Positions 1,550-55,049 of a DNA stretch of 64,000 nt are shown in pieces; positions within the stretch are counted from its first letter, which is position 1; every line of letters starts with the position of its first letter. Under the pieces are notes generated by a model. That model made no database searches. It was not told the DNA's origin and saw only the letters and a program-made list of their open reading frames with translations. Source of the stretch: a virus; the IMG/VR virus record IMGVR_UViG_3300046485_000051, positions 1 to 64,000 of that record; one strand, 5' to 3'. The translations under genes were made by a program, and so were the position numbers.

Positions 1550-2326
1550 ATGGAAAACAAATCAAAGCAAGCCTACAACGTAAACGAACTGCGCGAAGTC
1601 GCCGATGACATGGGCCGAGGCTGGCCTATCACAATGCAGGAAATGTGCCTGGCTCTCGACGATGCCGAGCGCTACCAGAAGCTCAAGGCGCGGCTGCCAG
1701 AGCCCGAGCGCTTAGCCAGCGCGCTGCTGGACTTCTCGAAGGACTGTGAACTGGGCGAGGACCTGGGATACAACGACCGGGAGCCCTGGGCCACACGCCG
1801 CAACATTGTCCGGCAACTCATGCGCGCCGCTGGACTAAACCCGACAAACCTGGACGCCTTTGACAACCCGCTGCCCATGCCGACAGAAGTGGAATGCGTC
1901 GCCGCTCAAGCCGGGGACCCGCTCGACAGAATGCCGGCGGCCCTGTTGGAACCCCGCGAGTGGACTCTGGGCGATATATGGCTGAGCACTGCCGGGTCTA
2001 TAATGACAGTTGTGGAAATCGGAAGCCCAGAAGGGAAACCGGCTTGGGCTATCTGCACGACTGAGGACGGCGTCCGCTTCCTAATCACGCAAGGCTTTGT
2101 GCCGACCGGCTGGACGCATGTGCTCGACGCGAAGAAGCGAGACGCCGCGATAGCCGAGGCAGCGAAGCCAGCGCCGGCCTGCTGCGGCAACTGCAAGCAC
2201 TGGGATATTGCTGGTGAGAATGCCCAGGCGAGGGGCTGGTGCCCGGTCTTCCAATGCCTGACCAGCCGACACTGCATATCGCCTGAGCACGAAAGCATGA
2301 ACTGCCCATACTACTCGCGAGCATGA
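1550..2326 (+). CDS. Hypothetical protein with Cys-rich C-terminus
   Basis: 258-aa ORF in the operon. C-terminal CCGNCKHW..WCPVFQC..HC..NCPYY cluster. Stop overlaps the next start (ATGA). Confidence 0.55.
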   Translation: MENKSKQAYNVNELREVADDMGRGWPITMQEMCLALDDAERYQKLKARLPEPERLASALLDFSKDCELGEDLGYNDREPWATRRNIVRQLMRAAGLNPTNLDAFDNPLPMPTEVECVAAQAGDPLDRMPAALLEPREWTLGDIWLSTAGSIMTVVEIGSPEGKPAWAICTTEDGVRFLITQGFVPTGWTHVLDAKKRDAAIAEAAKPAPACCGNCKHWDIAGENAQARGWCPVFQCLTSRHCISPEHESMNCPYYSRA

Positions 2327-2544
2327 GCGAGCCGCTTTATTTTGAAGGGCCTTTTGCGCCCGAGGAGTTGGTCAAGCGAGCAATCATCAATACAGCATGG
2401 CGCAGCTCGCGCCGGCGGCAGTCGCAACTCTGCTGGGTTATCGCGCACGACCTCTTCGGCCTGGGCTCAACTTCAAGTGTTCGCCTGTGCGAGCGCGTCG
2501 GCATTAACCCGTTCGCCGAGGCCCAGGACATTCTCCCTCACTAA
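2323..2544 (+). CDS. Hypothetical small protein
   Basis: ATGA start/stop overlap with the upstream gene; 73 aa. Confidence 0.45.
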   Translation: MSEPLYFEGPFAPEELVKRAIINTAWRSSRRRQSQLCWVIAHDLFGLGSTSSVRLCERVGINPFAEAQDILPH

Positions 2545-2547
2545 AAT

Positions 2548-2820
2548 ATGGCAACCTTCGGACTTCAATGCGACGCGATTACGCGCAAGGGCAATCGGTG
2601 CAAGCGCAAGAACCACTGGGAAATCCCCTGCACTGCTGTCTATGACGCGCGCTGTAGTTCTTACCGCGCCCAAGAGTATAAACCTGTCCGCCTGTGCCGG
2701 CAGCACGGTCGGGACCAGAGCCAGCACGCCGGCATGGGCCAGGCGCTCGTGCATTGGACAAACGAGGGTCAACGTATTTTTGATTCTTGCTTCGACTCCC
2801 TCGACTCTGCTATGCTGTAA
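2548..2820 (+). CDS. Hypothetical basic Cys-containing protein
   Basis: ATG 4 nt after the upstream stop; 90 aa. Confidence 0.45.
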   Translation: MATFGLQCDAITRKGNRCKRKNHWEIPCTAVYDARCSSYRAQEYKPVRLCRQHGRDQSQHAGMGQALVHWTNEGQRIFDSCFDSLDSAML

Positions 2821-2826
2821 CCCTGG

Positions 2827-3462
2827 ATGGCAAGCTCACGCGCATATCTTTGGCAGGCGGCTTTCGTCGCCTATTGTAACGGGACGCCCGAGGAGGAAAT
2901 CTCTCAGGTGTTCTCAATACCACTCGACACCCTCAACGACCGAATGGCGTTTGAGGGCTGGCGGGCACTGCGCACAAAGATGCCAATGGCGATGACGGTA
3001 ACGGGCGACGCGCAACTGCCGGCGAAGACAGAGGCCAAGCTCGCCGTCATCAATGAGAACCGGCAGAAGAACCTGGCGGTATTCACTGACCTGCGCGACC
3101 GACTGGTCGAGAAGCTGACAGCATGGCGCGACGGAAAGCTCAAGGTCCAGAAGGCTTTCAACTTCAAGGGCATAATCACGACGCACGAGGCCGACCCAGG
3201 CCCAGGCGACTGGGTGAACATCGCGACGTTTGCCCAGACCATTGCGCAGGGCACCTACCGGGCGTTAGGCGATTTCCAGGCGCAGGACAAGCCAGGGCAG
3301 GATGCCATAGGCGGCCAACTGACTGCGCCGGCCGGACCAGCAATTACAATTATCATGCCTGGCGCTGTGGCGTTCCCTCGCGAGGCGCGGGGCGTTGCAG
3401 AGGCCAAGGCTGGCAAGGTCATTGATATTGGGGAAGTGAAACCAGAAGACCCGAAGCCATGA
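2827..3462 (+). CDS. HTH-like N-terminus plus coiled-coil protein; weak candidate small terminase subunit
   Basis: N-terminal AAFVAYCNGTPEEEISQVFSIPLDTLNDRMAFEGW looks like TerS-type HTH regions. It lies 6 kb away from terL. Confidence 0.45.
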   Translation: MASSRAYLWQAAFVAYCNGTPEEEISQVFSIPLDTLNDRMAFEGWRALRTKMPMAMTVTGDAQLPAKTEAKLAVINENRQKNLAVFTDLRDRLVEKLTAWRDGKLKVQKAFNFKGIITTHEADPGPGDWVNIATFAQTIAQGTYRALGDFQAQDKPGQDAIGGQLTAPAGPAITIIMPGAVAFPREARGVAEAKAGKVIDIGEVKPEDPKP

Positions 3463-3677
3463 GCGACGACTACGAGCCCACGCCTGCCTACGCGGCCGAC
3501 TTCGTCAACGAGGCCCTGGATTACATCATCGAGCAGACCCGCTGGGCCAACGCCTTCCCCAAGAAATCGCTGGAGCGCATACGGCTGACGTGTGAAGCAG
3601 TGAAGGCCGGCCAGCCGTTGCCGTTCAAACGGATTCTGAAAGACTTAGGGTCAACCTTGCCGGTGGCGACCCTGTGA
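3459..3677 (+). CDS. Hypothetical small protein
   Basis: ATGA overlap with the upstream gene; 72 aa. Confidence 0.45.
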   Translation: MSDDYEPTPAYAADFVNEALDYIIEQTRWANAFPKKSLERIRLTCEAVKAGQPLPFKRILKDLGSTLPVATL

Positions 3678-3809
3678 AAACTAAAACGCAGTAACCGGAT
3701 TTGTCCGGCGCAGGCGGGAAGTCCCAAGGACGGGATGGCCCCAAGCGAGGCTATAAGCCACCGATGAGAAACCTCTGGGCCACTCATCTGCGCCGTGACT
3801 CTTTTTGTA

Positions 3810-4094
3810 ATGCTTGACACAGAGAAACTGCTTAAGATTGCCAGGCTCGCGCTGGAAATTAATACTATGAAAACAGAAGAACTACTTAATCGCATCCAGG
3901 ACTATCTGAGCAATGGCGGGCTGTTCAACCCCGAACTGATGGAGCCCGACAAGGTGCGCGCTCTACTGCTGGACTGTCGAGACCATATCCAGGCGGAGCC
4001 CCGAACCAGCAAGCCGCCGCTGGGCGTGATGCCGAGAGCCATTTGGATAGAGAAGCACCGGCAGGAGCTTAGCCGAGCCATCCAGGAGCATTGA
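3810..4094 (+). CDS. Hypothetical protein (start uncertain: GTG 3795, ATG 3810 or ATG 3867)
   Basis: ORF 3795..4094 with in-frame ATGs at 3810 and 3867. Confidence 0.4.
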   Translation: MLDTEKLLKIARLALEINTMKTEELLNRIQDYLSNGGLFNPELMEPDKVRALLLDCRDHIQAEPRTSKPPLGVMPRAIWIEKHRQELSRAIQEH

Positions 4095-4149
4095 GCGCCG
4101 GCCTGCATGAGCCGCTCAATGCCTGGTGGACAGAACTCCAATCCCTAGT

Positions 4150-4986
4150 ATGAAACACCGTTATATTGTATATAACCCGCCCTACAACGCCTGCTCGGCC
4201 GGCGTTCGCATGATGCACTACATACCGACGCTGCTCGACATGCTCGGGCTGCCAGTGTTGGTCAAGGAGCCCTGCCAGTTTAATCCCTTGCTGGGCGTGA
4301 CAGCGAGCGCTGGCCCGTTCAACCCCCTGCTGGGCGCGCCGGCAGTAGCTTGCGAGGGCGACGTGGCAATCTATGCGGACTACATCACCGGCAACCCGTT
4401 CGGGGCTGACCGATGCGTCCGCTTCCTGTGTTGCCCTAAGAGCCGGTTTACCGCGCGCCGCCTGGCGGCAGGCGACTGGCCCGGCACAGCCAAAGAGACC
4501 TTCGGGTCCTACCAGGAGGGCTACCTCGAACCGAACGACGGTATGACGCCGGCTGACTGCGTGACAATCCCCACCATCGAGGCCGCAGCTTGGCTGTTTG
4601 CCGAGCCCAAGACAATCCCAGCGCTCCTTTACGTCGGCAATAAAGGCAACGTAAAGGTCGGGCCGGACCTGGAGAACCTGCCGCGCATCGGCTATGGCGG
4701 CGGAGGGCTAGGCGACCGGGAGCGGACGCTCGCCCTGCTGCGCAAGACAGCGGCCATCTACACGACCGACCTGGACACCGTAATGGTCCACGAGGCGGCG
4801 CTGGCGGGCTGTAAGGTGTTCTACGTCCTCGGAAAGGGCGATTACCGCGAGCGCCAGGGCTCCCCAGGCGAGTTGATTAGCCAGGCGATGGGATTTACCA
4901 TGCGGCCTGCTCGCGACGCCGGGAAGGCGGCAACGCTGCACGCCTTGGCCTGCTTTGGGCTCGGGTTGAACCCTGCCGACTTCTAA
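4150..4986 (+). CDS. Hypothetical protein, possibly glycosyltransferase-like (GT-B-like C-terminal EAALAGCKVFYV)
   Basis: ORF 4126..4986 trimmed to ATG 4150. FNPLLG occurs twice. The C-terminal motif resembles the GT1 family E..G.PV region. Weak. Confidence 0.45.
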   Translation: MKHRYIVYNPPYNACSAGVRMMHYIPTLLDMLGLPVLVKEPCQFNPLLGVTASAGPFNPLLGAPAVACEGDVAIYADYITGNPFGADRCVRFLCCPKSRFTARRLAAGDWPGTAKETFGSYQEGYLEPNDGMTPADCVTIPTIEAAAWLFAEPKTIPALLYVGNKGNVKVGPDLENLPRIGYGGGGLGDRERTLALLRKTAAIYTTDLDTVMVHEAALAGCKVFYVLGKGDYRERQGSPGELISQAMGFTMRPARDAGKAATLHALACFGLGLNPADF

Positions 4987-9291: not shown

Positions 9292-10833
9292 ATGGATACG
9301 GAAAACTGGTATAGACCGAGCAAGCAAATCGCCGAGTTCCACGAGAGCAAGGCCCGTATTCGCGCGCTAATTGGTGGGCGCGGCACCGGGAAGACCACGA
9401 CCATCGCGGTCGAGGCTATTGGGCACTGTCTGCACAACTCCGGTGCGAAGGCGTATATCCTCCGCAAGACCCAGGACTCGAACGAAGACACGACGCTGGA
9501 GACGTTCGAGAAGCAGGTCTTCCCGAACCTCGGGTCTGCTTACCGGGACACCGGGGTTTCACTGTTCAAGAAAGTTGATGGGGGCAAGCAGTTTCGGCTG
9601 CCGTCGCGTCTGGCCGTCGAGAAGTTCAACGAGTGGAAAGCAGCCAACCCGCGCGCGACGAAAGCCCAGACGTTGACCTGGCTCGAAGCGGTGGGGAATA
9701 TCTTCTGCTCGTGGCTCCTGTTCGCCGGTGTGCCCGAGGCGCGCTATCGTGCTTCGCGCTTTCGTGGTTACGAGTGCTCGCTGCTGATTTTTGTCGAGGC
9801 CGACCAGTTGGCCCGGGAAGACCTGGACCTCGGCGTCGCTTGTCTGCGGTGGAAGGGGGCGGACCCGACGACCTGCGATGAAAAGGGATTTATCAAGGAC
9901 GCCGGGGTCGTTCTGGACACCAACCCGCCGAGCCCCCGACATTGGATTGCCAAGCTCGAAGAAGAGTCCCTCGGTGACCCCTCAGTCCGCTTCTGGCACC
10001 TTCGCACGCGCGACAACGCACATAACTTACCCGAAGGCTACGCCGATGGCCTAGAGAGGCAATACCGGAAGAATCCGGCTATGCTGGCGCGGATGGTGAA
10101 CGGCGAATACGCCGAGGCGTTCGACGGGACGCCCGTGCTGCACGAGTTTGCCCAGGAGCACGCGAAGGAGAACCTGCCCTGGCCCAAGGGGGCCTATCTG
10201 ATTCGCGGCTGGGACTTCGGCTCGACCCAGGCCGTCATCTTCTCGGCCTACTGGGCGGAGGGGAACACGGAATACTGGTGGGACCTTCACGAGTTCTTTG
10301 CCCGGCAGTCCGACGTAGACCGTCAATGTAAGGCGGTGCTGGACATTACCCGGACGGCCTTTCCGTTCTGGAATGACCGGTCCATTTGTTCGGGCGTTCG
10401 CGACTACTGCGACCCGGCGGGCAATGCACAGACGGACAAGGGCTCCAGCGTCAACGTGCTGCGGACCTACGGCATCTATCCGGGCTTTATCCGCATGGGG
10501 CTCCAGGAGAGCATCGCGATTTACAACCGGCTGCTGGCGAAGAAGGACGCCTTCGACAAGCCTGTCTATCATCTGGACAAGCTGACGTGTCCGCAGCTTT
10601 TCGTCGCCAGTTCGGGCGGCTACCGGTATCCGGTCGAAGGGGAACCGGGCTTCGGCGGGGACGAGCCACTCAAAGGGCCGAGCGGCGGGGACTATGACCA
10701 CGTCTGTGACGCTAGCCGGTATGCCAAGTTTAACTGCCTGAAGCTCCTCCGAACGGAGGCCGAGCAGTCGAAGAAATCGGTCGGGGCGCTGGCGCACAAG
10801 GCGGCGGCCAACCACAACAAGCGGTATTATTAA
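9292..10833 (+). CDS. terL: Terminase large subunit
   Basis: 513 aa with Walker A IGGRGTGKTT near the N-terminus. Size and position ahead of the portal fit. Confidence 0.85.
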   Translation: MDTENWYRPSKQIAEFHESKARIRALIGGRGTGKTTTIAVEAIGHCLHNSGAKAYILRKTQDSNEDTTLETFEKQVFPNLGSAYRDTGVSLFKKVDGGKQFRLPSRLAVEKFNEWKAANPRATKAQTLTWLEAVGNIFCSWLLFAGVPEARYRASRFRGYECSLLIFVEADQLAREDLDLGVACLRWKGADPTTCDEKGFIKDAGVVLDTNPPSPRHWIAKLEEESLGDPSVRFWHLRTRDNAHNLPEGYADGLERQYRKNPAMLARMVNGEYAEAFDGTPVLHEFAQEHAKENLPWPKGAYLIRGWDFGSTQAVIFSAYWAEGNTEYWWDLHEFFARQSDVDRQCKAVLDITRTAFPFWNDRSICSGVRDYCDPAGNAQTDKGSSVNVLRTYGIYPGFIRMGLQESIAIYNRLLAKKDAFDKPVYHLDKLTCPQLFVASSGGYRYPVEGEPGFGGDEPLKGPSGGDYDHVCDASRYAKFNCLKLLRTEAEQSKKSVGALAHKAAANHNKRYY

Positions 10834-11576: not shown

Positions 11577-13712
11577 ATGGACCGCCTCGTCGCCCGCCGG
11601 CTCGATACAGATAAGGACTATCGCTCTCGGCTCGTCAAGCTCGCCAAGGACTATCTGAAGATAGGCCGTGACGCGCTGGCTTATTGGTCGAGCGATTTCG
11701 ACCTGGCCTATGACCTGCTCTCCTGCTACTCGCCCTTGTCGAAGAAGGATATGGAAGCGCTCGAAAGGGGTCATCCGAAGCGGTTCGTGCTGCCGATGAC
11801 GGCGACGCAGATAACGACCATGAGCACATACGTCGCCCAGGTCCTCTTCGGCCAGGAAACCCCGTGGAAGGTGGAAGGCCGCCGGCCCGAGGACGAAGTC
11901 CCTGGCGAGTTTGTTAATCAGCTTTTGCGGTGGAACGCAGAACAACAGCCCACCTATCTGCTTGGCTACCTGTGGTGCCAGGACGCGCTCGCGGTGAACC
12001 GGGGTATCTTCTACAACTCCTGGGCACCTATCATGCGTCCTGAGCTTATCCAGGTGCCCGTGGCGGACCCGACAGACATAGACGAGGCAACCGGCCAGCC
12101 GAGAACGTATCTGCGCCCCACCCGGCGCAACAAGGTCATCGGCAGCTATAATCGTCTTGAGTTGGTTTCGCCTTACGACTTCGTTTGTGACCCGGCCTTA
12201 CCGCTCTGGCGGCAACAGGAAATGAGGTTCAATGGGCATCGGTCGATTATACCGGTGACCGAGCTTCGCCGACGCTCCAAGCTGCCGGTTGACCATCCGG
12301 CTTACGTCATGCCGACTGCGGTCGAGGATTTGGTCGCGAAAGCCAAGAAGGGCGTCGCTCAGAACGACCCCGGCATCCCTTCACTGCCCGGCGTGCAGCC
12401 CAACCCGGCGGAAATCCGAATGAGTCGAACGGCCTACGAGCGCACTCGCGCGCTTCAGCCGACCGGCCAGGTCCAGGCGGACAAGAACGATACCGGCAAT
12501 GTCGAGTGCTGGGAGTTGTGGGTCCGGCTCGTGCCGAGCGATAATCACATTTACGACGACGAGGTTCACGGGGCCGGCACGGGAGCCGGCGGCGCGCTCA
12601 GCGGCCCCCTGGCTGCGACCGAGACGACGGACGAGCCGGTCATCTTCCAGCTTCTCATTGCCGGCGGCGACGTGCTGCTGTCAATCAATGAATCGACCTA
12701 TGCGCACGGCATGTATCCGTATTCGGTGGGCGAAGGCCGGCCGAGCGCGCATTTCCAGTTCTCGCCCGGCTGGGTGCAGATTTTGAAGGGCTTGCAGGAC
12801 TATGTTGACTGGTTGAAGAACCGGCACCAGGAAGCGCTGAGCCGGACCCTGGGCAACATCTTTCTGTATGACCCGGCGATGGTGGACGTGACCGACTTCA
12901 TGGACCCCGATAAGGAGGGTCTGATGATTGCGCTCAAGCCCGAGGCCAACGGCAAGAAGCTCGACGAGGTTTTTAAGCAGATACCGATTAAGGACTTGAC
13001 GGAGAACTTCCTGGAGGAAGCGATGGAGTTTGTGAAGTTCTCGGAGAGCGTCACGGCGGCGGGCTCGGGTATGCAGGGCGTCATCCCGAATGGGGCTGAC
13101 CCCAGCGCGACGCAATTTGCCGGCACGCAGCAGATGGGCGCGGGGAGGATGACTTCCATCGCGCGGCTGCTCTCCTCGCAGGCGCTCGTGCCGCAGGCCA
13201 AGCAGTTTGTCTCGAACTTCCAGCAGTTCATGGACCAGCCGCAAGCGATTCGCTTCAAGCCGACCGACCCGACAGCGGTGCCGGCGGAGTTGGCGGACGC
13301 CGCCTCGGTGACGGTGAGCAAGGACACGATTGCGGGCGAATACGAGTTTGTGGCACACGATGGAACTTTGCCCGGGACGGACGGGCGCAAGGTGGCGGCG
13401 ATTGTCCGGCTGCTCGAAGCGGCGCAGGGTTTCCCTGACGCATTCACTCCGCAGCCCGGCAACATCAACCCGCGCAAGCTGCTCCTGGTCGGGGCCAAGG
13501 CTAGCGGGCTCAATGTCGAGAACTTCGTTTACGATTCGACAACGACCCCGCCGGCAGGTCCTCCCGCGCCGGGCGGGCCAGGCACTCCTCCGCCTCCGCC
13601 GGGGATGCCAATGAATCCCGGGCCGCAGCCGATGGTGCCGGCGCTGCCTGACCTCGGCGCAACAGATTTGACGCCAGTGAACGCACCCCAGCCGAGGCCG
13701 GGAAATGTTTAG
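11577..13712 (+). CDS. Portal (head-to-tail connector) protein
   Basis: 711 aa located between terL and scaffold/capsid. Called mainly from size and position; has a Pro-rich C-terminal tail. Confidence 0.7.
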   Translation: MDRLVARRLDTDKDYRSRLVKLAKDYLKIGRDALAYWSSDFDLAYDLLSCYSPLSKKDMEALERGHPKRFVLPMTATQITTMSTYVAQVLFGQETPWKVEGRRPEDEVPGEFVNQLLRWNAEQQPTYLLGYLWCQDALAVNRGIFYNSWAPIMRPELIQVPVADPTDIDEATGQPRTYLRPTRRNKVIGSYNRLELVSPYDFVCDPALPLWRQQEMRFNGHRSIIPVTELRRRSKLPVDHPAYVMPTAVEDLVAKAKKGVAQNDPGIPSLPGVQPNPAEIRMSRTAYERTRALQPTGQVQADKNDTGNVECWELWVRLVPSDNHIYDDEVHGAGTGAGGALSGPLAATETTDEPVIFQLLIAGGDVLLSINESTYAHGMYPYSVGEGRPSAHFQFSPGWVQILKGLQDYVDWLKNRHQEALSRTLGNIFLYDPAMVDVTDFMDPDKEGLMIALKPEANGKKLDEVFKQIPIKDLTENFLEEAMEFVKFSESVTAAGSGMQGVIPNGADPSATQFAGTQQMGAGRMTSIARLLSSQALVPQAKQFVSNFQQFMDQPQAIRFKPTDPTAVPAELADAASVTVSKDTIAGEYEFVAHDGTLPGTDGRKVAAIVRLLEAAQGFPDAFTPQPGNINPRKLLLVGAKASGLNVENFVYDSTTTPPAGPPAPGGPGTPPPPPGMPMNPGPQPMVPALPDLGATDLTPVNAPQPRPGNV

Positions 13713-14451
13713 GATACTTCTTCGTATGCTCTTGAACGCCCTTCACACTTGCGGGCTTTCCCCTTCCCAACAGATTATCGTTCTGGGACCTCCGGGGCCG
13801 CGAGACCCAGGTCCCACGGTTTTGGAGTCACCTGTTGCCAAGGCCGCGACAGACATAAGCCTGACTGGGTTTACAGTGAACTGGCGGCGAGTCGCCAAAG
13901 CGTCTTCCTACATCATCAAGATTTTCTCGAATGGCGGACCCACGCCGCTATTTGTCTTGAGCGCCTCCGCCGGAGACTCGTCCTTAGCTGTGACGGGACT
14001 CACACAAGGCACCGAATACGATTACCAGGTCTTCGCCCACTACGCGGCCGCCAACGCGGACAGCGGGCCTTCTAACACTGTCGCTGCGATTACAACATCG
14101 CCGCCTGATGTTGCTTACTGGTGGGTCCACGACTATGCCTCAGCCGACCCCAACAGCTTCGTGAGTTTCCCTCTTTTCTCTTCAGCTTATGCCGTCTATG
14201 GAAGCGGGGACGTGGACCACCCGGGTAATTACGTTTTTGGCACGGAGCAGGCTCTCGTGAACTACTTGAGCCCAAGAGAAGACGGCTTGCCCTGGGCGCG
14301 AGTGGTGCTGTATGTCAATGGGCTTGGAGACCTTGAGGGTTGGCTTGGGTCAGATTCCGGGGGGTATTGGGTAACCGAGCCCACGCTCGCACAGGTCGAG
14401 GCTGACCTCTTGGCTTCTCCGACGGCTCCGCCGGGGCTCAACTTCAGTTAA
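13705..14451 (+). CDS. FN3-domain protein (possible head decoration or accessory virion protein)
   Basis: DISLTGFTVNWRRVAKASSYIIKIFSNGG..LAVTGLTQGTEYDYQVFA is FN3-like. Overlaps the portal stop by 8 nt. Confidence 0.55.
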   Translation: MFRILLRMLLNALHTCGLSPSQQIIVLGPPGPRDPGPTVLESPVAKAATDISLTGFTVNWRRVAKASSYIIKIFSNGGPTPLFVLSASAGDSSLAVTGLTQGTEYDYQVFAHYAAANADSGPSNTVAAITTSPPDVAYWWVHDYASADPNSFVSFPLFSSAYAVYGSGDVDHPGNYVFGTEQALVNYLSPREDGLPWARVVLYVNGLGDLEGWLGSDSGGYWVTEPTLAQVEADLLASPTAPPGLNFS

Positions 14452-14776: not shown

Positions 14777-15892
14777 ATGGCTGAACCTACTACCACTGGA
14801 GGCGCTTCGACGCCTGTAAACGCAACGCCGGAAACGGTAACTCCCGACCGCTTGACGGTCCCGGTATCGGCAATCTTCGACGCGGGCGACCTGACTATGC
14901 CCGGAGGAACAACTCCGCCAGCGCCCGCTGCGGCTCCGGCGGAGGCACCTACGCCAGCGCCCGCTGCGGCTCCGGCGGAGGCACCTACGCCAGCGCCCGC
15001 TGCGGCCCCGGCGGAGACGCCTACACCCGCGCCAGCGCCCGCTGCGGCCCCGGCGGAGACGCCCGTCCAGAAGGTGAAGGTCGGCGGGAAGGAATACACG
15101 CAAGAGGAGTTGGAAAAGCTTCTGGCGGAGCGCGCGGCCCAACCGGCTCCCGCTGTTGTTCCGACACCCGCACCGGCTGCCGCAGCCCCGGCCCCCGCCG
15201 CACCTACGCCCGAGCAGGTCGCTAAGGCTGAGAGCGAGTGGGCCGCCAAGTTCAGCGAGGAAGAGAAGCTCAACTTCGGGCTCTCGACGGAGGAAGTCGA
15301 GACGCTGCTGTCCGGCGGCGAGGACGCGGCCAAGCTCTTCGGTCAGAAGATTACGGACGCCTGCGCGAAGGCTGTCATGCTGGCGCGCAAGAGCATTTAT
15401 GCCGACCTCAACCCGACCCTGGAGCGTATCCAGCGGGACATGACACCGTTGCTGACCAACAACACCCAGGTTGAGCAGGTGGCGGCCGAGCACCAATTTG
15501 TGGCGGCCTACCCTGACTTCAAGGGCCATATCGACACTGCTCGCCAAGTCGGCGAGGCGCTGTTGACCAGGTATCCGGAGCAGTGCGCGGCGATGACGCG
15601 CGAGCAACTGCTGGCAGAGGTCGCGGCCCAGACGGACCGCATTCTCCAAACGGAATTCAAGCGCTGGAATCCGAGTGCGACAGGCACCTGGCGGGAAGCC
15701 GGCAAGACGGCTCCGGCTGCCCCGACGCCGGCCCTCGCAGCACCCGCCGCGCCGGTTCAGCCAGCCGCAGCACCCGCTGCGCCGGCAGTGGCTCCGGTTC
15801 GGGCTCCCGCGTCTAACTCTCCCGCAGCCGTGGCGGTTGGTGGGCAGCCGCAGGGCTGGCACAAGAGCACAGCCAAAAGCCTGGCTGACTAG
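14777..15892 (+). CDS. Scaffolding protein (putative)
   Basis: Ala/Pro/Glu-rich with predicted helical segments. Lies between portal and capsid and contains the PAPAAAPAEAPT repeats. Confidence 0.6.
   Translation: MAEPTTTGGASTPVNATPETVTPDRLTVPVSAIFDAGDLTMPGGTTPPAPAAAPAEAPTPAPAAAPAEAPTPAPAAAPAETPTPAPAPAAAPAETPVQKVKVGGKEYTQEELEKLLAERAAQPAPAVVPTPAPAAAAPAPAAPTPEQVAKAESEWAAKFSEEEKLNFGLSTEEVETLLSGGEDAAKLFGQKITDACAKAVMLARKSIYADLNPTLERIQRDMTPLLTNNTQVEQVAAEHQFVAAYPDFKGHIDTARQVGEALLTRYPEQCAAMTREQLLAEVAAQTDRILQTEFKRWNPSATGTWREAGKTAPAAPTPALAAPAAPVQPAAAPAAPAVAPVRAPASNSPAAVAVGGQPQGWHKSTAKSLAD
14918..15064 (+). repeat. 36-bp tandem repeat (about 4 copies) encoding PAPAAAPAE[AT]PT
   Basis: Units start at 14918, 14954 and 14990, with a fourth after a 6-nt insertion at 15032. 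Confidence 0.85.
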
Positions 15893-15911: not shown

Positions 15912-15948
15912 CTCTCCCGCGCAAGCCCGGCGGGAGAGGCTTCTCTTT
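15912..15948 (+). terminator. Intrinsic terminator-like hairpin ending at the next start codon
   Basis: ctctcccgc (15912-15920) pairs with gcgggagag (15930-15938), then gcttctcttt. ATG at 15949. Confidence 0.5.
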
Positions 15949-16668
15949 ATGATTGACCTAGTTTATGTGTTGGGTCCCGGAAGTTCCTGGGGCGACCGGG
16001 AACTTTTCTATTCGCTGCGTAGCGCCCAGGAGCACTTGCGGGGGATGGGGAAGGTTTTCATCGTCGGCACGGCCCCGAAGATTGCGCCGGACTTTGGCGT
16101 CGAGTGGACGCACGTTCCGGTGGAGGATAAGTCTTCCTGGCCGGCGTGCAACATTAACGCTTGCCTGCTGGCGGCCTGCCAGGTGCCGCAGCTATCTGAC
16201 ACTTTCCTGCGGGTGGATGACGACACATTTTTCCTGCGCGCGCAGGACGCCGATACTTTCCCGAATTACTACCGGGGGCTTCTTCCGGAGCACGTTCAGA
16301 TGCTTAGCGACCGCGCCGGCTCGCTCTACTACAAGTCTCTGTTGCGGACGGTTGCCTGGCTCAACGCGCGCCAGGTATCAAATCTTGACTTCGAGGTCCA
16401 CGGTCCGATGCGTTTCGAGAAGGCGAAACTCGGAGCGCTGCTGGCGAGGCTGAAGCCGGAGACCGGATTTCTGAGCCGCTCGCTCTACGGCAATCTTCAC
16501 AATCTTGCGGGCGAGCCAATGTCTGACTCGAAGATAGACCTCTCGCTCTCACCGGGCCAGATTGAGCGCCGGGTCAAGGACCGCCCGTTCTTCTCGGTGG
16601 GCGACCTGGGTTTGACTCACGCGATGCGAACTTTTCTGGGGCAGATATATCCGGGGAGGGTGCCTTGA
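15949..16668 (+). CDS. Stealth-family-like sugar-1-phosphate transferase (CR2-like region)
   Basis: DRELFYSLRSAQEHLRGMGKVFIVG and PQLSDTFLRVDDDTFFLRAQDADTF resemble my recollection of Stealth conserved region 2 (D.ELRYSLRS...IFIVT ... LSE.FIY.NDD.FF). Confidence 0.55.
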   Translation: MIDLVYVLGPGSSWGDRELFYSLRSAQEHLRGMGKVFIVGTAPKIAPDFGVEWTHVPVEDKSSWPACNINACLLAACQVPQLSDTFLRVDDDTFFLRAQDADTFPNYYRGLLPEHVQMLSDRAGSLYYKSLLRTVAWLNARQVSNLDFEVHGPMRFEKAKLGALLARLKPETGFLSRSLYGNLHNLAGEPMSDSKIDLSLSPGQIERRVKDRPFFSVGDLGLTHAMRTFLGQIYPGRVP

Positions 16669-17297
16669 TTTATTACTTCATGCCTTATGACACGCGCGGC
16701 CTGGGCTTCGCTTACAACCGACATTGCGCGCTGGTGCCGGAGGACACTGACTGGATTTGCTTGATGGACATTGACACGATGTTCTTTTCCTCACAGCGCA
16801 TGGGTGAGCAGCTTGAACAAGTCATCACGGAATTTGGCTCGAAGTTCTCCGCGTTTACCTGCGTGACCAACCGGGCTTTCCGCCAGTCGCAGCAGCAGCT
16901 TATGAATATCCGCGATGAGCGCGACCTGGTGAAGCTGAAGCAGCGCGCGGACTTCCAGACGCGCACGCGCCAGGGCAAGGTCGAGGAACTGCGCACGCCG
17001 CTCAACGGACAATTTTTGCTCTTCCCCAAATCACTTTGGCGGCAGTATCCGTTCGCAGAAGTGGGCCGGGCGAAGAAAGCGCCAGGTCATCACATTTTAG
17101 GAATTGACACCGACTGGCGCGAGCGGCTTTACGCCGACGGCCGGCGTATCGGCCTCATTCACCAGCTTATGGCGGTGCATTTCTACCGCATGGACGACCC
17201 AGCGGAGTTGGTTGGGCACTTGCCGAAGGGCAACGAGTGGTGGCGCAAGACCTCGGCGGACCAGCGCGCCCAAAAAATAATCGCAGATGGGTGTTGA
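16665..17297 (+). CDS. GT-A fold (family 2-like) glycosyltransferase
   Basis: IYYFMPYDTRGLGFAYNRHCALVPEDTDWICLMDIDTMF carries a DxD motif. TTG start is preceded by a GGGGAGGG Shine-Dalgarno sequence. Confidence 0.55.
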   Translation: MIYYFMPYDTRGLGFAYNRHCALVPEDTDWICLMDIDTMFFSSQRMGEQLEQVITEFGSKFSAFTCVTNRAFRQSQQQLMNIRDERDLVKLKQRADFQTRTRQGKVEELRTPLNGQFLLFPKSLWRQYPFAEVGRAKKAPGHHILGIDTDWRERLYADGRRIGLIHQLMAVHFYRMDDPAELVGHLPKGNEWWRKTSADQRAQKIIADGC

Positions 17298-17323
17298 CAG
17301 TTTCAGGCGCTTTCCGCTAGGTT
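17294..17323 (+). promoter_or_regulatory. Promoter-like TTGACA-N18-TAGGTT upstream of the capsid gene
   Basis: -35 at 17294-17299 overlaps the GT stop codon. -10 at 17318-17323. Confidence 0.4.
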
Positions 17324-17364
17324 GTTATTAACAACGAGGTAACAGACCATAACAAAAGGGAACT

Positions 17365-18642
17365 ATGAGCGCCGTATCCGGACTACTTTCGAGCACCAAC
17401 GCCAGCGCGGACCTTGATACCAAGGCCGATTTGGTTGGTGAATATCAGGACACAATTTTGGTCCGCAATTCCAAGGGGATGAATGCGGGCAGCACACTGT
17501 TCGGGCTGATGAGCCGGCTGAAAGCCGAGCCCGCCGAGAACACCGAATTCAACTGGTTCGAGCGCGACCCCGTGCGGCGCGAGTTGGCCGCCGACGGTGC
17601 AGTCGCCGCGCCCGTCAGTTCGTGCGTTGCTGGCAGCATCGTCTTTTCCGAGAGCACCACCAGCGGCGACGCCTGGCCTTACCTGGCGCAGGGACATATC
17701 CTCCGCAACGCGCGGACGGGTGAGTATGTCAAGGTGACGGCTACGCCAACCTCGAATACCGTGGCGGTTCTGCGCGCCATCAACAACGCGGGCGTGTTGA
17801 CGGGTTACACCATCAACGACAACGACATTTTCTCCATCGTCACTCTTGGCAAGGACGAGGGCGCGCTCCCCACCCGGTCGAGCTACGAGGAGCCCACCAT
17901 CCTGACGAATTACGTCCAGACCTACAACGCGGTCGTGGAACTGACCAACGCCTTCAAGGCGAACAAGCTGCGTTCTGACCTGGCCGGCCCGTTGAAGGCC
18001 CGGCGCATTCAAGCCCTGGAGAAGATTTCCAAGGACATTGAAGGCTCTTTCCTCCTGGGTGTGAAGAAACGCCTTACCGGCTCGAACGGCTACGAGTATT
18101 ACACGGGCGGTCTCAAAGACGCCGTGGACAAAGCGGTCCCGCACAACTCTCTGAACGGCGGCGGCGCTTCCGGCGTCAACCTGAGCGTGGTGAACGATTG
18201 GATGCAGGGCTTTATGACGGTCGGCAGCGACGCCAAGCTGGCGCTCTGCGGCCCCAAAGCCTACGCGGTCTTCTCGGCCTTCGCCAATTCGGCAACCAAC
18301 GGGTTCCGGATTATGAACCAGGAAAACGTGTTCGGTATGAATATCACGGTCGTCAATACGCCTTTCGGCGAGTTGGACCTGGCATTCCATCCGCTGCTCA
18401 AGGAAATTAACAGCTTCAACGATTGGATGTTTGTCGTTGACCTGGCCCACGTCATGCAGAAGACGATGGAGCCGCTGTTCCTGGAGCCCAATATTCAAAC
18501 ACCGGGACAAGATTCATACAAGGAACAATTTCGCGCCAAGCTCGGCCTCAAGTTGCGCTTCGCGAACGCTTTCGGCTACGCGCACGGTCTCCAGAGCATC
18601 GTGCTCACTGGCGGCGCAGGCGGCGAAAGCTCCAGCGCTTAG
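17365..18642 (+). CDS. Major capsid protein
   Basis: 425 aa downstream of the scaffold, with NTEFNWFERDPVRRE near the N-terminus. Position and size fit; C-terminal tail is LTGGAGGESSSA. Confidence 0.7.
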   Translation: MSAVSGLLSSTNASADLDTKADLVGEYQDTILVRNSKGMNAGSTLFGLMSRLKAEPAENTEFNWFERDPVRRELAADGAVAAPVSSCVAGSIVFSESTTSGDAWPYLAQGHILRNARTGEYVKVTATPTSNTVAVLRAINNAGVLTGYTINDNDIFSIVTLGKDEGALPTRSSYEEPTILTNYVQTYNAVVELTNAFKANKLRSDLAGPLKARRIQALEKISKDIEGSFLLGVKKRLTGSNGYEYYTGGLKDAVDKAVPHNSLNGGGASGVNLSVVNDWMQGFMTVGSDAKLALCGPKAYAVFSAFANSATNGFRIMNQENVFGMNITVVNTPFGELDLAFHPLLKEINSFNDWMFVVDLAHVMQKTMEPLFLEPNIQTPGQDSYKEQFRAKLGLKLRFANAFGYAHGLQSIVLTGGAGGESSSA

Positions 18643-18645
18643 TCC

Positions 18646-18942
18646 GTGGAGAAGGTTATCGTGACCACGGCGGAGGCTCTCCGCCTGGTCAATGACCCGA
18701 GCGCCGGCCCGCCCCCGGCCCGGGCAACAGAGCGGTGGAAGTTCGTTAAGAACTTCGGAGCGGCGGAGGCAGTAAAGTTTCGGGATGGGTCGGAATATCG
18801 GTTCAGGCTCATTCGCAGTAACGGTCCGGGCGAAGGCTATTTGCCGGGGTCGCAGATGGAAACCGACGACGAAGGGCTGGCCCAGAAGTTGCGCGAGGCG
18901 ATGGAGAACCCGGCGACAGGGCTGGTAGAGATAACGATTTAG
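18646..18942 (+). CDS. Hypothetical head-associated protein
   Basis: GTG start 3 nt after the capsid stop; 98 aa. Confidence 0.45.
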   Translation: MEKVIVTTAEALRLVNDPSAGPPPARATERWKFVKNFGAAEAVKFRDGSEYRFRLIRSNGPGEGYLPGSQMETDDEGLAQKLREAMENPATGLVEITI

Positions 18943-19191: not shown

Positions 19192-19845
19192 ATGAGCCAA
19201 ACTTTTGCACAGTTCAAGGCACGCCTGGCGTCAGGCGTGCAGCGCAGCGATCTGGCTAGCAGCTACGGCCTGTTTATCAACGAGGCACTGCGGGAAATCC
19301 AGAATCGCCGCTCCTGGACGTGCATGAAGGTGGACGCGAGCGTCTCGATTGCGACCGGCACGGGCCGGGAGACGGCGGCGCTGCCAGCGGCCTTCAAGGA
19401 GTTTCAGAGGCGGACGGCGGTCGAGTATGTCGCGGATGACGGCGGCTTCGTCCCGGCCGATGTGGTGACGGAGGAGCAGCAGATTTACCGTATCTGGGCT
19501 TTCGGCGGCACGCCTATGTATACCTGGCCGCCGCGCGTGTTCTTTCTGCACCAGCCGGCGGCGACGTTAGGGGTCTTGGAGCCGCTTTCTCAGGCGCTCA
19601 ACTTCCGCGTGCGCTACTATGGCTATCTGCCCGATCTGTCGGCGGACGGTGACACGTCGCCGCTGATTAATGCTTACCCGCAGATGGTCCTAGCCAAGGC
19701 TAAGGCCATTGCGTTCACGGAAATTGTTGACCCGGTGGCGGCGCAGTTTGAGGAGCTTTTCGAGAAGAAACTGGCCGAGGCCGTAAGGCAAGACGCTTAC
19801 TCCGAAGTCTCGGGCCGGATTACCCGGCTGGGCCAGGGGGTCTAG
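19192..19845 (+). CDS. Virion protein, possible head-tail adaptor or tail tubular A-like
   Basis: 217 aa, first gene after the capsid block. Called by position only. Confidence 0.4.
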   Translation: MSQTFAQFKARLASGVQRSDLASSYGLFINEALREIQNRRSWTCMKVDASVSIATGTGRETAALPAAFKEFQRRTAVEYVADDGGFVPADVVTEEQQIYRIWAFGGTPMYTWPPRVFFLHQPAATLGVLEPLSQALNFRVRYYGYLPDLSADGDTSPLINAYPQMVLAKAKAIAFTEIVDPVAAQFEELFEKKLAEAVRQDAYSEVSGRITRLGQGV

Positions 19846-31493: not shown

Positions 31494-34400
31494 ATGGCTG
31501 CTGATTTCATTGGCCCCGACACCGACCTCGCCGCCCCTCAGACTCCGGGGAAACCCGAAGGCTTCGTAGGGCCTGACTCCGACACTACCGCCTCTTTTGT
31601 GGGGCCGAAGTCTGATGCGGCTCAGCCCGAGGATATTCGTGGGCGGATGCAGGACCCAAAGTTCTGGCCGTCGAATGACCAGTGGCGCGCGCTTTACGAG
31701 AGCGAGAAGAACAAGCCTTCCGACCGCCTGGGCGCGGTAGCGCGGGGCTTGAAGGGCATCGCGGCATTGCCCGGCCAGGCGTGGGACGAAGCTTCGGCCG
31801 AGGCCGCTCAGGGCAAGCCAGGGCACTTTCTGCAACGCGAGGCGGCGGTCGTTCCTGAAGCACTGGGCCAACTTGCGCGGATGGTTATAGACCCGGTCGC
31901 GGATTTCGTGCTGGCCCCTCCTCACTCCACGAACGAAGAGCAGGCTTTTCAGAACTGGAAAGAGGAACAGGGCAACAAGCTGGCTCGGTCTCGGATGCCG
32001 GCCTCGGCTCCGTGGACGCGGACCTGGCGGGAACCGGTCGAGGGTGAGGACCCCGAACAGGCCGCCGTGCAGCCGTTCCAAGCGGCCTCGACTATCGCCA
32101 GCCTTGGTGTGCCTATCGGGGCGGCTACCGGGCCGGCGCTGAAGTATCTGGGCGCGGCGGGGCCGGCGGCTACTGCCGGCAAGACTCTCGTGCAGTCCGC
32201 TATTGAGGGCGCGGCGGGGCCGGCGACTAAGGCGTTGGGCGAGCGGGCTGCCGGCGCTGTCGGCGCTGCGGTCGAGAACACGGGCAAGCTGGCTAAGGTC
32301 GTAGGCGGGGCTCCGCGCAAACTAATCAACAAGGCCGCCGAGGCTATCACCGGCCCGGAAATGGCAAAGCCGCTGGCTGGCGGTATCGCGGGCGCACTGC
32401 TGCACAATCCTGTTGCCCAGGGCTTGGCAACTGCCGAAGGTGTTGGCACAGGCGTCGCGAAGGCCGGCGAGCTTATCCAGAAGGTGGCGGGAGCCTCTGC
32501 GGCTGGGCCTGGCCGCTTTGCTAACCTCCTCAAGAACCCGGCGACTCCTACCTGGATACGCGGGACAATCGGCTCATTGACAGCCGGCGCTGCGGGCATA
32601 GTCGTGCCTGCCGCCAAGTCGATAGTGAAAGGTGCAGTCGGTGGTGCTGCTGTCGGTGCCGGACTGAACGCTGCGAACGGTGAAGACCCCTGGGAAGGCG
32701 CGGGCGCGGGCCTGGCCTTGGGCGGAGGTTTCGGATTGGCCGGTGCCGGCGAGGTCAGGAAGGGCGACGTATTCAAGAACCGCGTCGCCGGGCTCACCGA
32801 GCTTATGCGGTCCAACCTGGACGCAGGTGTCACTCCTGAGACTCTGGCGAAGGTGCCGGATGCGGCGGCGCTGGCGGCGTCAGACCTGCCCTATCTGGGA
32901 ATCAAGGATGCGCAAGGGCGAGACCTCAAGGTCCGTTTCGCCGACGAAAAGACAGACACGTCTCTGGCCGGCCAGGATGGCTACTACGACCGGGGCCAGC
33001 ATACCATTGTGATGAACGCCGACGCGCTCCAGCGCAGCCCGGCGGCCTGGGGCTCGCTGTTCCACGAGGTTCTTCATCCGTTGATGGAGAGCGAGGTTGC
33101 CAACCGTCCCGAGTTAAAGGGCCAAGTGGACGCGGCGCTGGCGAAGAACGGCCAGACGCTCGACGAGGCGAAGCGCGCCTACGCTTCTGCGCACTTGGCG
33201 GAGCAACTTAAAGGCAGCACGCCCGAGGCGGCCAAGGCTACGATAGACCAATGGGTCACGGCGCAGGACCAAGCTTCCGCCGTGAACAACAAGGGCGATG
33301 CAAACCATTGGGTTTACTCTGAACTGTTGGCCGAGGCTGGCCGCTGTGCGCTGGGTGGTCTCGGCGACATAGTCAGGCCCGAGGGCGCAATCAATAGGGC
33401 GCTGGCCCCGTCGGTGAGCAAGATTCTTGGGAACGTCTTAGAGCGCATGGGCATAGGCTCCCGGCCGGGGCCGAAGCCCGGCACAGTCATTCCTGGATTT
33501 CAGAACGTGGCGGAGGACCCGTCGCTTCGCAAGGCCGTCTATAGCCTTCTGAGGAATCAACGGGATTTTGCGCCGGGTATCTCGAAGGGGGCTCCGCAGG
33601 AAGTCCGGCTCACGCCGCAGGACGTGGGTGGGGCGAAGCTTCCAGTCAGCGGCCAGACGGCGCAGGACTATCTGCGCGAGACTAGGCCCGGCTCGGGCCG
33701 GTATGAAGTGCGCCCGAAGGCCGAGCAACGAAAGGCCGAGCGAGACCGGAAGGCGGTCATGGAGCGCATATTTCCGACGACGGGCACGGCGCTGCCGGCG
33801 AACGATGCCAGCGACGCGATGGCGCTGCGCACGCGCGCAGACGGCTCCGCAGAGCGGCGCGGCAGGGTGCTGGGCGATGCTTTCTATCAGGACCCGAACG
33901 TCAGCGACTCGATGAAGCAGACGGCGGCAATCTTTGAGGCGATGATTAACAAGGGTGGGGCCTTCGAGGGCTGGTATAACAAAACCCACAAGAACGGCAT
34001 CGCCAGCCTGAAGGACCTCGTCTCTGAGTATAAGCGCGGCGTCCGGCCTTACGAGTTTTTCATGGACAAGCACGGGCACCTTCTGGTGCGCAGCTTCGAC
34101 ATGGGTCACGCGGAGGACGTGAAGCTCGGCGAGTGGGCACAACGCACTGGGCCGGTGAGCCTGGAGCTTTGGGGCAACGACCCGGCAGCGGCGAAGGTTG
34201 ACCTGGTGACTTACACCGACAACCTGGCGTCCGGCCGGCCGGGTGCCGATAGCATCGGCGAGAAGAAACGCGACGTATTGAACGCGCTGGTCTTCGGCGA
34301 CAACGCCGCGAACCGAGACGCCAACCCACTGCGGAAGAACCTCAAGAGCGCGAAGGCCAGGGAAGGTTTGGTCCGGTCTTACCGGATTGACCGGGTCGAG

Positions 34401-54269: not shown

Positions 54270-55049
54270 TTAGTAAGCTTCAGCTTCTTCGCGGGTGATA
54301 AAGAAGTGAATGCCGCTAGAGCATTCAATCATGGGGTCTGGGTCGAAGGTATCCGGGCGCACGATCTGGCCCACGGCATACATGAAAGAATAGTCGTGCT
54401 GCGAGTGCCCTTCCCCTTCGAGGACGACTGCATACTCAGCGCGACACTTTCGCCCGATAAGGCCCCCGACACGCTTGGCCGCCGCCGGTATTTGGAGCTT
54501 GGAAATAGTCCCACCAGAAAGCTGTTTCCAGCCTACCAGGTCGCCTTCTGGCAGTATGGTGCGCTGCGAAAGCAGCTTGGACAGGTCGGCCCCGGACAGG
54601 TTGGCCCCGAACAGGTCGGCCCCGGACAGGTTGGCCCCGAACAGGTTGGCCCCGGACAGGTCGGCCCCGGACAGGTTGGCCCCGAACAGGTCGGCCCCGG
54701 ACAGGTTGGCCCCGGACAGGTTGGCCCCGAACAGGTTGGCCCCGAACAGGTCGGCCCCGGACAGGCTGGCCCCGGACAGGTCGGCCCTGGACAGGTTGGC
54801 CCCGGACAGGTCGGCCCTGGACAGGTTGGCCCCGAACAGGTTGGCCCCGGACAGGTTGGCCCCGGACAGGTTGGCCCCGGACAGGTCGGCCCTGGACAGG
54901 TTGGCCCCGGACAGGTCGGCCCCGGACAGGTCGGCCCCGGACAGGTTGGCTTTAGCAGCTATTGCCACCACCACGGCAGCGCCCAGGTATTCGGCATCCG
55001 TCTCGAAGAGAGTAGAGCCTGAATAGCGGTGTTTAATTTGAATCTTCAT
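54270..55049 (-). CDS. Pentapeptide-repeat protein (25 near-perfect A[ND]L[SF][GRK] units) with a globular C-terminal domain
   Basis: [25 protein letters not shown]... The C-terminal domain ends [16 protein letters not shown]. Confidence 0.8.
54576..54950 (-). repeat. 15-nt periodic coding repeat x25 (pentapeptide array)
   Basis: cccggacaggt[tc]ggc-type units back to back over 375 nt. Confidence 0.9.

Follow-up and report, generated by a model that had tools for sequence, protein, structure and literature searches.

Organization of the locus

The viral DNA analysed here, referred to as the window, comprises 64 kb (positions 1 to 64,000) of the IMG/VR virus record IMGVR_UViG_3300046485_000051, a metagenome contig of 65.4 kb from the Joint Genome Institute (JGI). 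The head module of the window is of the SU10 type, according to Pfam and PHROG searches. Between the genes of the putative scaffolding protein and the major capsid protein it carries a cassette of two overlapping open reading frames (ORF1 and ORF2), encoding a Stealth-like protein and a putative glycosyltransferase of the GT-A fold. Among the relatives, the presence of this pair goes together with a short, serine-bearing extension of the capsid C-terminus. The reading that we favour, with a probability of roughly one half, is that of a late, low-level enzyme pair decorating the capsid tail with a sugar-phosphate-containing glycan. The features of the locus are the following:

14777-15892 (+): putative scaffolding protein, 371 residues, with Ala/Pro-rich repeats (labelled from position and composition)
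15912-15948 (+): terminator-like GC hairpin (arms 15912-15920 and 15930-15938) with T-rich run
15949-16668 (+): ORF1, Stealth-like putative hexose-1-phosphate transferase, 239 residues, ATG start
16665-17297 (+): ORF2, GT-A-fold putative glycosyltransferase, 210 residues, TTG start
17294-17323 (+): sigma-70-like promoter box TTGACA-N18-TAGGTT (TTGACA 17294-17299, TAGGTT 17318-17323)
17365-18642 (+): major capsid protein, SU10-type, 425 residues (Pfam SU10_MCP, E 2.4e-27)
18604-18639 (+): Gly/Ser tail at the C-terminus of the capsid protein, LTGGAGGESSSA, proposed acceptor
18646-18942 (+): conserved 98-residue protein, directly 3' of the capsid gene

Both reading frames lie where an earlier sequence-only reading had placed them, and all the motifs that it quoted, as well as the capsid ending, were found. 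The GC content of ORF1 and ORF2, overall and at third codon positions (GC3), resembles that of the neighbouring genes, thus giving no compositional sign of a recent foreign origin. The putative scaffolding protein has no match in Pfam or PHROG; its homologues are found between portal and capsid in all the relatives, and homologues of the 98-residue protein come after the capsid gene in all of them.

When the region was searched at the nucleotide level, no deposited phage matched; the phage is known from metagenomes only, and no prophage copy was found when the capsid protein was scanned against 185,579 reference genomes. Relatives of the capsid protein (60-82% identical to that of the window) were drawn from viral and metagenome collections, and relatives of both enzymes were gathered as well. 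Loci are denoted by L numbers, the more distant phage loci with a Stealth-like gene being L007-L085 (n = 79). The family alignments comprise 24 homologues for ORF1 and 18 for ORF2.

The Stealth-like protein ORF1

The ORF1 protein carries the motifs DRELFYSLRS...KVFIVG and LSDTFLRVDDDTFF. The database copy has the identical sequence, with its start placed further downstream (207 residues). ORF1 matches the Pfam family Stealth_CR2 (PF11380; CR stands for conserved region) with an E value of 4.8e-6 and 27.1 bits, under the gathering threshold of 39.4 bits, and the same family is matched at E <= 1 by 24/24 members of the ORF1 family (best 5.9e-10). A match from end to end is found with phrog_7999 (PHROG 7999, annotated "unknown function"; E 4e-28). 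The single-sequence search of the PDB returned three marginal matches, all of them Stealth enzymes. With the family profile, the catalytic domain of GNPTAB (GlcNAc-1-phosphotransferase) is matched over residues 10-165 at E 5.4e-15, and matches are also obtained with Drosophila GNPT and M. tuberculosis CpsY (E 1.8e-8 for CpsY). The AlphaFold2 (AF2) model is a compact domain with a predicted local distance difference test score (pLDDT) of 94.5, for which the best twelve Foldseek matches in the PDB are all chains of CpsY (8j2n) or GNPT (E 3e-10 to 2e-6), with GT-A enzymes ranking lower.

The residues invariant in the alignment of the 24 homologues are E18, S22, L23, S25, N68, D91, D92, H151, P153, and K158. 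In Stealth proteins, the catalytic core has at its N-terminal end the CR1 motif, IDVVYTF or a close variant (PMC10668966). The corresponding stretch of ORF1, IDLVYVL, is found at residues 2-8, and its D3, V5, and Y6 are invariant or nearly so. The CR2 motifs ELxYSLRS and xDD are kept. The metal-binding Asp pair of CR2 is D407/D408 in GNPTAB and N322/D324 in CpsY (PMC9388126, PMC10668966), and the invariant D91/D92 of ORF1 align with the LNDD sequence of GNPTAB (D407/D408). CR3 provides the catalytic His (H956 in GNPTAB) and an essential Arg (R419 in CpsY, R986 in GNPTAB; PMC9388126, PMC10668966). The invariant H151-x-P153 of ORF1 aligns with the HMPH of GNPTAB that contains H956, and R174 (Arg or Lys in the homologues) is a candidate for the CR3 Arg, the profile alignment ending at residue 165.

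The fourth conserved region, CR4, has the near-universal tetrapeptide CLND or CIND. Pfam Stealth_CR4 gives a weak match in 6 of the 24 homologues only (best E 0.0085), and the window protein is unmatched. The spacer segments and accessory domains of Stealth proteins are also absent from ORF1. Judged by its sequence and model, ORF1 is best described as a member of a distinct compact Stealth-like family and not as a canonical Stealth enzyme, because it has neither spacers nor accessory domains, the CR4 tetrapeptide is missing, and a sugar-contacting Glu appears, from the alignment register, to be replaced by Cys or Lys. The resemblance to Stealth CR2 that had been noticed beforehand is thus borne out by the family profile and the fold, with the qualifications that the match stays below the Pfam threshold, that CR4 is lacking, and that the family is a compact one of its own. 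By homology, the chemistry of ORF1 would be sugar-1-phosphate transfer.

The family is large, with 7,104 clusters at 50% identity (E <= 0.001), or 2,016 at E <= 1e-30. The best 150 clusters are mostly stand-alone proteins of 230-250 residues, and the gene is encoded on at least 283 IMG/VR viral contigs. Homologues in deposited phages, such as gp6 of cluster K mycobacteriophages and gp115 of Gordonia phage OneUp, bear the label hypothetical protein. Nothing relevant emerged from a search of the literature for Stealth proteins in bacteriophages.

The GT-A-fold protein ORF2

The start of ORF2 overlaps the stop of ORF1 by 4 nucleotides (TTGA), and ORF2 is predicted to be translationally coupled to ORF1. 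The database copy is identical over the full length. The ORF2 protein contains the motif WICLMDIDTMF. It has no match in Pfam or NCBIfam, i.e. in no curated sequence family of glycosyltransferases, the matches being to PHROG clusters: phrog_14179, annotated glycosyltransferase (E 7e-25), and phrog_26101 (also glycosyltransferase). Single-sequence searches of the PDB were uninformative, and a profile and a predicted structure were needed.

The AF2 model of ORF2 (pLDDT 87) is also a compact domain. The top Foldseek matches in the PDB are UDP-glucose pyrophosphorylases (E ~1e-4, template modelling (TM) score ~0.45), followed by the GT-A enzymes LARGE1, hyaluronan synthase, B4GALNT1, and GalNAc-T2, with similar and modest TM scores. 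In the viral structure library BFVD, nearly all the matches are GT-A glycosyltransferases (best query TM score, TMq, 0.78). The D35-I-D37 motif follows a strand (residues 30-34), and both Asp residues are invariant in the 18 homologues; they represent either the uridine-binding Asp or a metal-binding DxD. The model thus assigns ORF2 to the GT-A fold. The comparison of both proteins by profiles and Foldseek, proposed earlier as a check, led to Stealth enzymes (CpsY, GNPT) for ORF1 and to GT-A for ORF2, in agreement with the GT-A fold and DxD core anticipated for the latter.

Of the 79 distant loci, 17 have a glycosyltransferase gene of the ORF2 type along with the Stealth-like gene, mostly directly adjacent and otherwise within ~4 kb. 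In L054 and L073 both domains are present in one polypeptide (glycosyltransferase at 1-178, Stealth-like domain at ~404-649). ORF2 is also related to gp166 of Escherichia phage phi92, a member of a block of four consecutive glycosyltransferase genes (gp163-gp166; L087 5001-8177) that lies near the endolysin in phi92-like phages. This block holds the closest relatives of ORF2 in cultured phages, and the record gives it no function.

Transcription signals and the insertion site

The T-rich run of the hairpin at 15912-15948 is followed directly by the ATG of ORF1, and the purine-rich 3' arm of the hairpin, GGGAGAGG, is the sole Shine-Dalgarno-like sequence for ORF1. The calculated fold energy is -24 kcal/mol, with a z-score of only -1.8 with respect to shuffled sequences. 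The hairpin was not called in a simple terminator scan of the window, because its loop has 9 nucleotides. Most of the relatives inspected, with the cassette or without it, have a GC hairpin with a T-run 3' of the scaffold gene, the sequences being different, and this conservation of position makes the hairpin credible. At the other end of the cassette, the -35 hexamer of the capsid promoter box overlaps the stop codon of ORF2. A strict consensus promoter scan did not call the box at 17294-17323, which rests on conservation across relatives: TTGACA-N17/18-TAGGTT with a conserved leader is common to all the cassette-bearing relatives, and weaker forms are seen in relatives without the cassette.

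Since both signals occur also in relatives without the pair, the cassette is an insertion between two ancestral transcription signals. The sequence-only reading had the two sugar genes bracketed by a hairpin and a promoter within the head-morphogenesis block. Both signals are indeed present and the pair does lie within the head module, but from the comparison of relatives the signals belong to the scaffold and capsid genes, respectively, and are not features of the cassette, which probably lacks its own promoter.

The gene order scaffold, Stealth-like gene, glycosyltransferase, optional extra sugar genes, and capsid is shared by L001, L004, L005, L006, and L115 (60-80% identical). In L103 (720-1640) the same site between scaffold and capsid genes is taken by an HNH endonuclease-like ORF, which shows it to be a general insertion hotspot. 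L006 has an extra GT92-like gene there. The cassette is further enlarged in L005 (3568-6709) and L119 (1247-4598) by a second ORF2 paralogue, a GT92/GT2-like protein, two unknown proteins, and a transketolase-like thiamine-diphosphate enzyme split over two genes (one for the N half, the other for the pyrimidine-binding half), all located between the pair and the capsid gene. In the 91-kb relative L004, a FkbM/RfbT-like methyltransferase, an NAD-dependent epimerase, and a UDP-glucose/GDP-mannose dehydrogenase (split, on the opposite strand) are found just upstream of the scaffold gene and next to the pair (1625-4830). The presence of the dehydrogenase, epimerase, and methyltransferase beside the pair implies a phage-encoded supply of modified nucleotide sugars. 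For most of the extra cassette proteins of the relatives, the Pfam matches are absent or sub-threshold.

Capsid tails and the enzyme pair in the SU10-type family

The window capsid ends with LTGGAGGESSSA. All the complete capsids encoded together with the pair (5/5) extend the conserved end, ...FGYAxxLxxI, by 4-27 residues, which include serines:

Window: ...IVLTGGAGGESSSA
L115: ...INAGTGSSGSSSS
L006: ...VVSGGVGAEGSSGQGSSGDLITESL
L005: ...VASGGSGTEGSSGSRSTDADRIESVSF
L004: ...IHSGS

L119 has a similarly long capsid tail and is left outside this count, as its contig begins within the cassette and the status of the Stealth-like gene is not readable. Capsids without the pair nearby (L090, L091, L096, L097, L100, L101, L102, L104, and L105) end 1-3 residues past the core; in these loci the scaffold gene directly neighbours the capsid gene, and no pair occurs at a distance of 8 kb or less. 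All the other capsid fragments recovered also end 1-3 residues past the core. The lineages without the pair, all of them lacking the tail, number about ten. L120, with the glycosyltransferase only, has a capsid without the tail. In the capsid tree (neighbour-joining) the long-tailed SU10-type capsids form one clade, with L004 placed apart, beside L105 and L120, which both have no Stealth-like gene. Among the head and neck proteins of the window, a Gly/Ser C-terminal tail is found in the capsid protein only.

The phage represented by L120 and L121 shows a different arrangement. Both loci encode a single protein (L120 1596-2426, L121 501-1331) in which a glycosyltransferase of the ORF2 type is joined to a copy of the post-capsid protein's conserved domain. 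The fusion protein, P0031, is found on two independent contigs, and its C-terminal domain is 41% identical to the 98-residue protein (E 1e-17). This phage has no Stealth-like gene on its 4.2-kb contig and no Ser tail on the capsid, and its stand-alone post-capsid protein has a long N-terminal extension rich in Pro, Ala, and Thr. The fusion suggests recruitment of the glycosyltransferase to the head, or hints at the post-capsid protein as an alternative substrate. The C-terminal extension of another glycosyltransferase variant, P0042, was considered as a relative of the 98-residue protein and rejected, as the two are not related.

Stealth-like genes in other phages

A similar contrast is seen in an unrelated capsid family of the HK97 type. 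In 5/5 loci with a Stealth-like gene, the capsid protein adds five residues after ...TGVK, ending with Ser (VVTSS, VEVAS, VEAAS, or GPAGS), and in 13/13 loci without this gene, with at least 8.4 kb of upstream sequence, it stops at ...TGVK. The location of the Stealth-like gene has changed within the clade of the five loci, with L038/L201 having it immediately 3' of the capsid gene. A terminal capsid serine, taken alone, was rejected as a diagnostic, on account of ...KTAAS endings without a nearby Stealth-like gene in a second HK97-type family.

In other phages the usual location of the Stealth-like gene is ahead of the terminase, at 2-8 kb upstream of the capsid gene, and it is often accompanied by genes for a polysaccharide pyruvyl transferase, a putative rhamnosyltransferase, and a DNA methylase. 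In cluster K mycobacteriophages (25 mycobacteriophage records) the homologue, labelled hypothetical, is located upstream of the terminase genes. It corresponds to gp6 in Mycobacterium phage Fionnbharth (L086 1273-1959), the capsid of which ends with TPDAGSGS; the capsid of Ekdilam, which is not among the tblastn matches for the Stealth-like gene, ends with AAPGGGS.

Proposed function of the enzyme pair

In the reading that we favour, transcripts of the late head operon that run past the scaffold terminator would include the cassette, at a level below that of the scaffold gene. With no promoter of its own and a position behind that terminator, the pair would be made late and at low, catalytic levels, the capsid gene being driven by its own promoter. 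The Stealth-like enzyme would move a sugar-1-phosphate from a nucleotide sugar to the hydroxyl group of a tail serine, or else to a sugar first placed there by ORF2, and each capsid subunit would thereby come to bear a phosphodiester-linked glycan. Relatives with extra glycosyltransferases, the split transketolase-like enzyme, the UDP-sugar dehydrogenase, the epimerase, and the methyltransferase might build more elaborate glycans. By analogy with the glycosylated capsids of mycobacteriophages, the likely benefit would be an altered capsid surface, in terms of shielding, stability, or adhesion. The suggestion that the capsid tail could be an acceptor, made before any comparison with relatives, has gained indirect support from the co-occurrence of tail and enzymes and from the similar contrast in the unrelated capsid family, and the tail stands as the probable target on these grounds. 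We infer the phosphoglycosylation, and likewise the identity of its target, from sequence relationships.

Several observations weigh against this reading. ORF1 has no C[LI]ND motif, its C-terminal region reading FFSVGDLGL. Judged from the alignment register and not from a structural superposition, the ORF1 family has Cys or Lys at the position facing the sugar-contacting Glu (E305 in CpsY, E389 in GNPTAB). Without the CR4 tetrapeptide and with the sugar-binding Glu apparently not conserved, the donor sugar and even the chemistry are uncertain. For the relatives without the pair, the span searched was ±8-10 kb around the capsid gene, so a copy elsewhere in the genome is possible. The tail-bearing capsids are clustered in clades, hence the raw counts overstate the number of independent events: the five HK97-type loci with the gene belong to one deep clade (~45% identical), and the association of tail and enzymes rests on about 2-3 independent evolutionary contrasts, SU10 and HK97 together. 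The second HK97-type family is mixed, with many capsids that end with ...KTAAS in the absence of a nearby Stealth-like gene. In many phages the Stealth-like gene is situated upstream of the terminase, or in the replication region (Gordonia phage OneUp), away from the capsid gene. The capsid tails of cluster K mycobacteriophages show no clean contrast.

A wider and more tentative proposal is that the widespread phage Stealth-like enzymes of ~240 residues attach sugar-1-phosphate directly to serines at the C-terminal tips of capsid proteins (O-phosphoglycosylation). The enzymes concerned amount to more than 2,000 clusters at 50% identity and take in PHROG 7999 and gp6 of cluster K, and the trait would span both SU10- and HK97-type capsids, with or without partner glycosyltransferases. 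We regard it as possible, though on balance doubtful. To our knowledge, protein O-phosphoglycosylation has not been described in bacteriophages.

Alternative explanations

The enzymes might instead modify a surface polysaccharide of the host (capsule, O-antigen, or a teichoic-acid-like polymer), in a manner resembling seroconversion or receptor masking, which would protect the infected or lysogenic cell or keep the progeny from re-adsorbing to debris. The characterised bacterial Stealth enzymes all act on polysaccharides (PMC10668966), the polysaccharide pyruvyl transferase and putative rhamnosyltransferase that neighbour Stealth-like genes in other phages would fit such a role, and the weak integrase-like match at 59600-60796 makes lysogeny possible. 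The cassette, however, sits within the late head operon, immediately behind a terminator and without its own promoter, and this layout is the opposite of that of moron or seroconversion genes. Neither ORF1 nor ORF2 matched a membrane-protein family and both AF2 models are compact, no direct prediction of transmembrane segments or signal peptides having been made. An action on the host surface would also leave it unexplained why the genes go together with capsid tails in two capsid families that are unrelated. We consider it unlikely.

At least as unlikely, in our view, is a different protein of the virion or its assembly as the target, namely the 98-residue post-capsid protein, the protein with the fibronectin type III (fn3) domain encoded at 13705-14451, or the tail fibres. 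The fusion in L120/L121 of a glycosyltransferase to the domain of the 98-residue protein, in a phage with no Ser tail on the capsid, speaks in favour of such a target, as does the glycosylation reported for both capsid and tail tube in mycobacteriophages. Against it, the capsid protein is the one head or neck protein of the window with a Gly/Ser C-terminal tail, and it is this tail that tracks the Stealth-like gene across relatives.

ORF2 could also be a sugar-1-phosphate nucleotidyltransferase that supplies the donor to the Stealth-like enzyme, whatever the target. The UDP-glucose pyrophosphorylases mentioned above are the best fold matches of ORF2 in the PDB, but these matches are weak, with TM scores no better than those of the GT-A glycosyltransferases. 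Moreover, the viral structure library returned nearly exclusively GT-A matches, the matching PHROG families are annotated as glycosyltransferases, and no nucleotidyltransferase family was matched in Pfam or NCBIfam, all of which makes this assignment quite improbable.

Modification of the phage DNA, for example by (phospho)glycosylation of hydroxymethylated bases, is very improbable: glycosyltransferases of DNA-hypermodifying phages are known (Pyle et al. 2024) and the homologue gp115 of OneUp sits among replication genes, but the proteins of the replication region that were scanned (a subset of the ORFs) include no member of a hydroxymethylase or thymidylate-synthase-like family, a scaffold-capsid site in the late operon is atypical for such genes, and the association with the capsid tail is left unexplained.

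Comparison with known systems

With CpsY and GNPTAB, ORF1 shares the fold, the CR1-like IDLVYVL, the ELxYSLRS and xDD motifs, and the H-x-P of CR3, with a family similarity of E 5e-15. It differs from them in its length (~240 residues), in the absence of spacers, accessory domains, and the CLND/CIND tetrapeptide, and in being phage-encoded and linked to the capsid. Known Stealth members act on glycans and not directly on protein serines. The families phrog_7999, phrog_14179, and phrog_26101, which match ORF1 or ORF2, are sequence clusters without characterised members.

Glycans have been described on the C-terminal extensions of capsid and tail-tube proteins in mycobacteriophages Che8, Corndog, and Myrna, as O-glycosylation (Freeman et al. 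2023, as summarized in PMC12619734 and PMC12363180). The two systems are alike in having phage-encoded glycosyltransferases and a capsid C-terminal extension as the acceptor (predicted in our case), and in that the enzymes are dispensable accessory functions, patchily distributed among related phages. The combination of the Che8/Corndog type, i.e. transferases together with a co-varying capsid C-terminal extension, is also found here, in few independent contrasts. On the other hand, the window phage is SU10-like with ~60% GC, its modification is predicted from genes, and its enzymes are a Stealth-like putative phosphotransferase and an unclassified GT-A protein; a phosphodiester linkage would differ chemically. 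In tblastn searches of ORF1 and ORF2 against deposited phages no cluster F or O mycobacteriophage was listed, and Che8 gp110 and Corndog gp38 were not compared directly.

A typical moron is expressed from the prophage, with a promoter and a terminator of its own. With prophage seroconversion cassettes and morons, the pair has in common that accessory sugar-modifying genes are located at a variable hotspot of the phage genome. It differs from them in having a terminator upstream and the promoter of the next gene downstream, in its position in the late head operon, and in having no match to a membrane-protein family. The order typical of a moron, with a promoter upstream and a terminator downstream, is not observed, the sole promoter-like box being downstream.

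We know of phage virion glycosylation so far only from a few actinobacteriophages, where it alters antibody recognition, a property that bears on phage therapy. Virion glycosylation in itself is thus not new. If the favoured reading is correct, capsid glycosylation would extend to a different group of phages and to a different chemistry, with a phosphodiester-linked sugar installed by a Stealth-type enzyme, and a function would be assigned to PHROG 7999, a "hypothetical protein" family whose metagenomic members number in the thousands. The co-occurrence of a Stealth-like gene with a short Ser-bearing C-terminal extension of the capsid protein is a testable sequence rule, and cluster K mycobacteriophages such as Fionnbharth are cultured systems open to direct testing. 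For the engineering of capsid surfaces, a small soluble transferase that recognises short peptide tags could also be of use.

Other genes of the window

The remaining features of the head module, on both sides of the locus described above, are:

9292-10833: large terminase
11577-13712: portal
13705-14451 (+): fn3-domain protein, 248 residues (fibronectin type III match just below threshold, E 3e-5)
19192-19845: adaptor

The gene of the fn3-domain protein overlaps the end of the portal gene, and its product may be a decoration of the head or neck. Its position is taken in one relative by a gene for 422 residues with a faint leucine-rich repeat (LRR) match and in L001 by a gene for 133 residues without any match.

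Downstream of the tail genes, a single ORF of 2,745 residues (31494-39731, +; GC3 0.77) may encode a giant virion or ejection protein. A 398-residue protein (59600-60796, +) has a sub-threshold match to Phage_integrase (E 1e-4, 22.6 vs 27.1 bits), given which the phage may be temperate. The 250-residue protein encoded at 42739-43491 (-) combines DUF4406 with the N-terminal domain of a dATP/dGTP diphosphohydrolase (Pfam dGTP_diPhyd_N, E 2e-31). Enzymes of this MazZ type accompany PurZ in phages that replace adenine by 2-aminoadenine; an adenylosuccinate-synthetase-like PurZ was not seen among the window ORFs scanned (a subset). In the early/replication arm, a pentapeptide-repeat protein fused to DUF5758 is encoded at 54270-55049 (-), with E values of 2e-47 and 3e-19 for the two domains, respectively.

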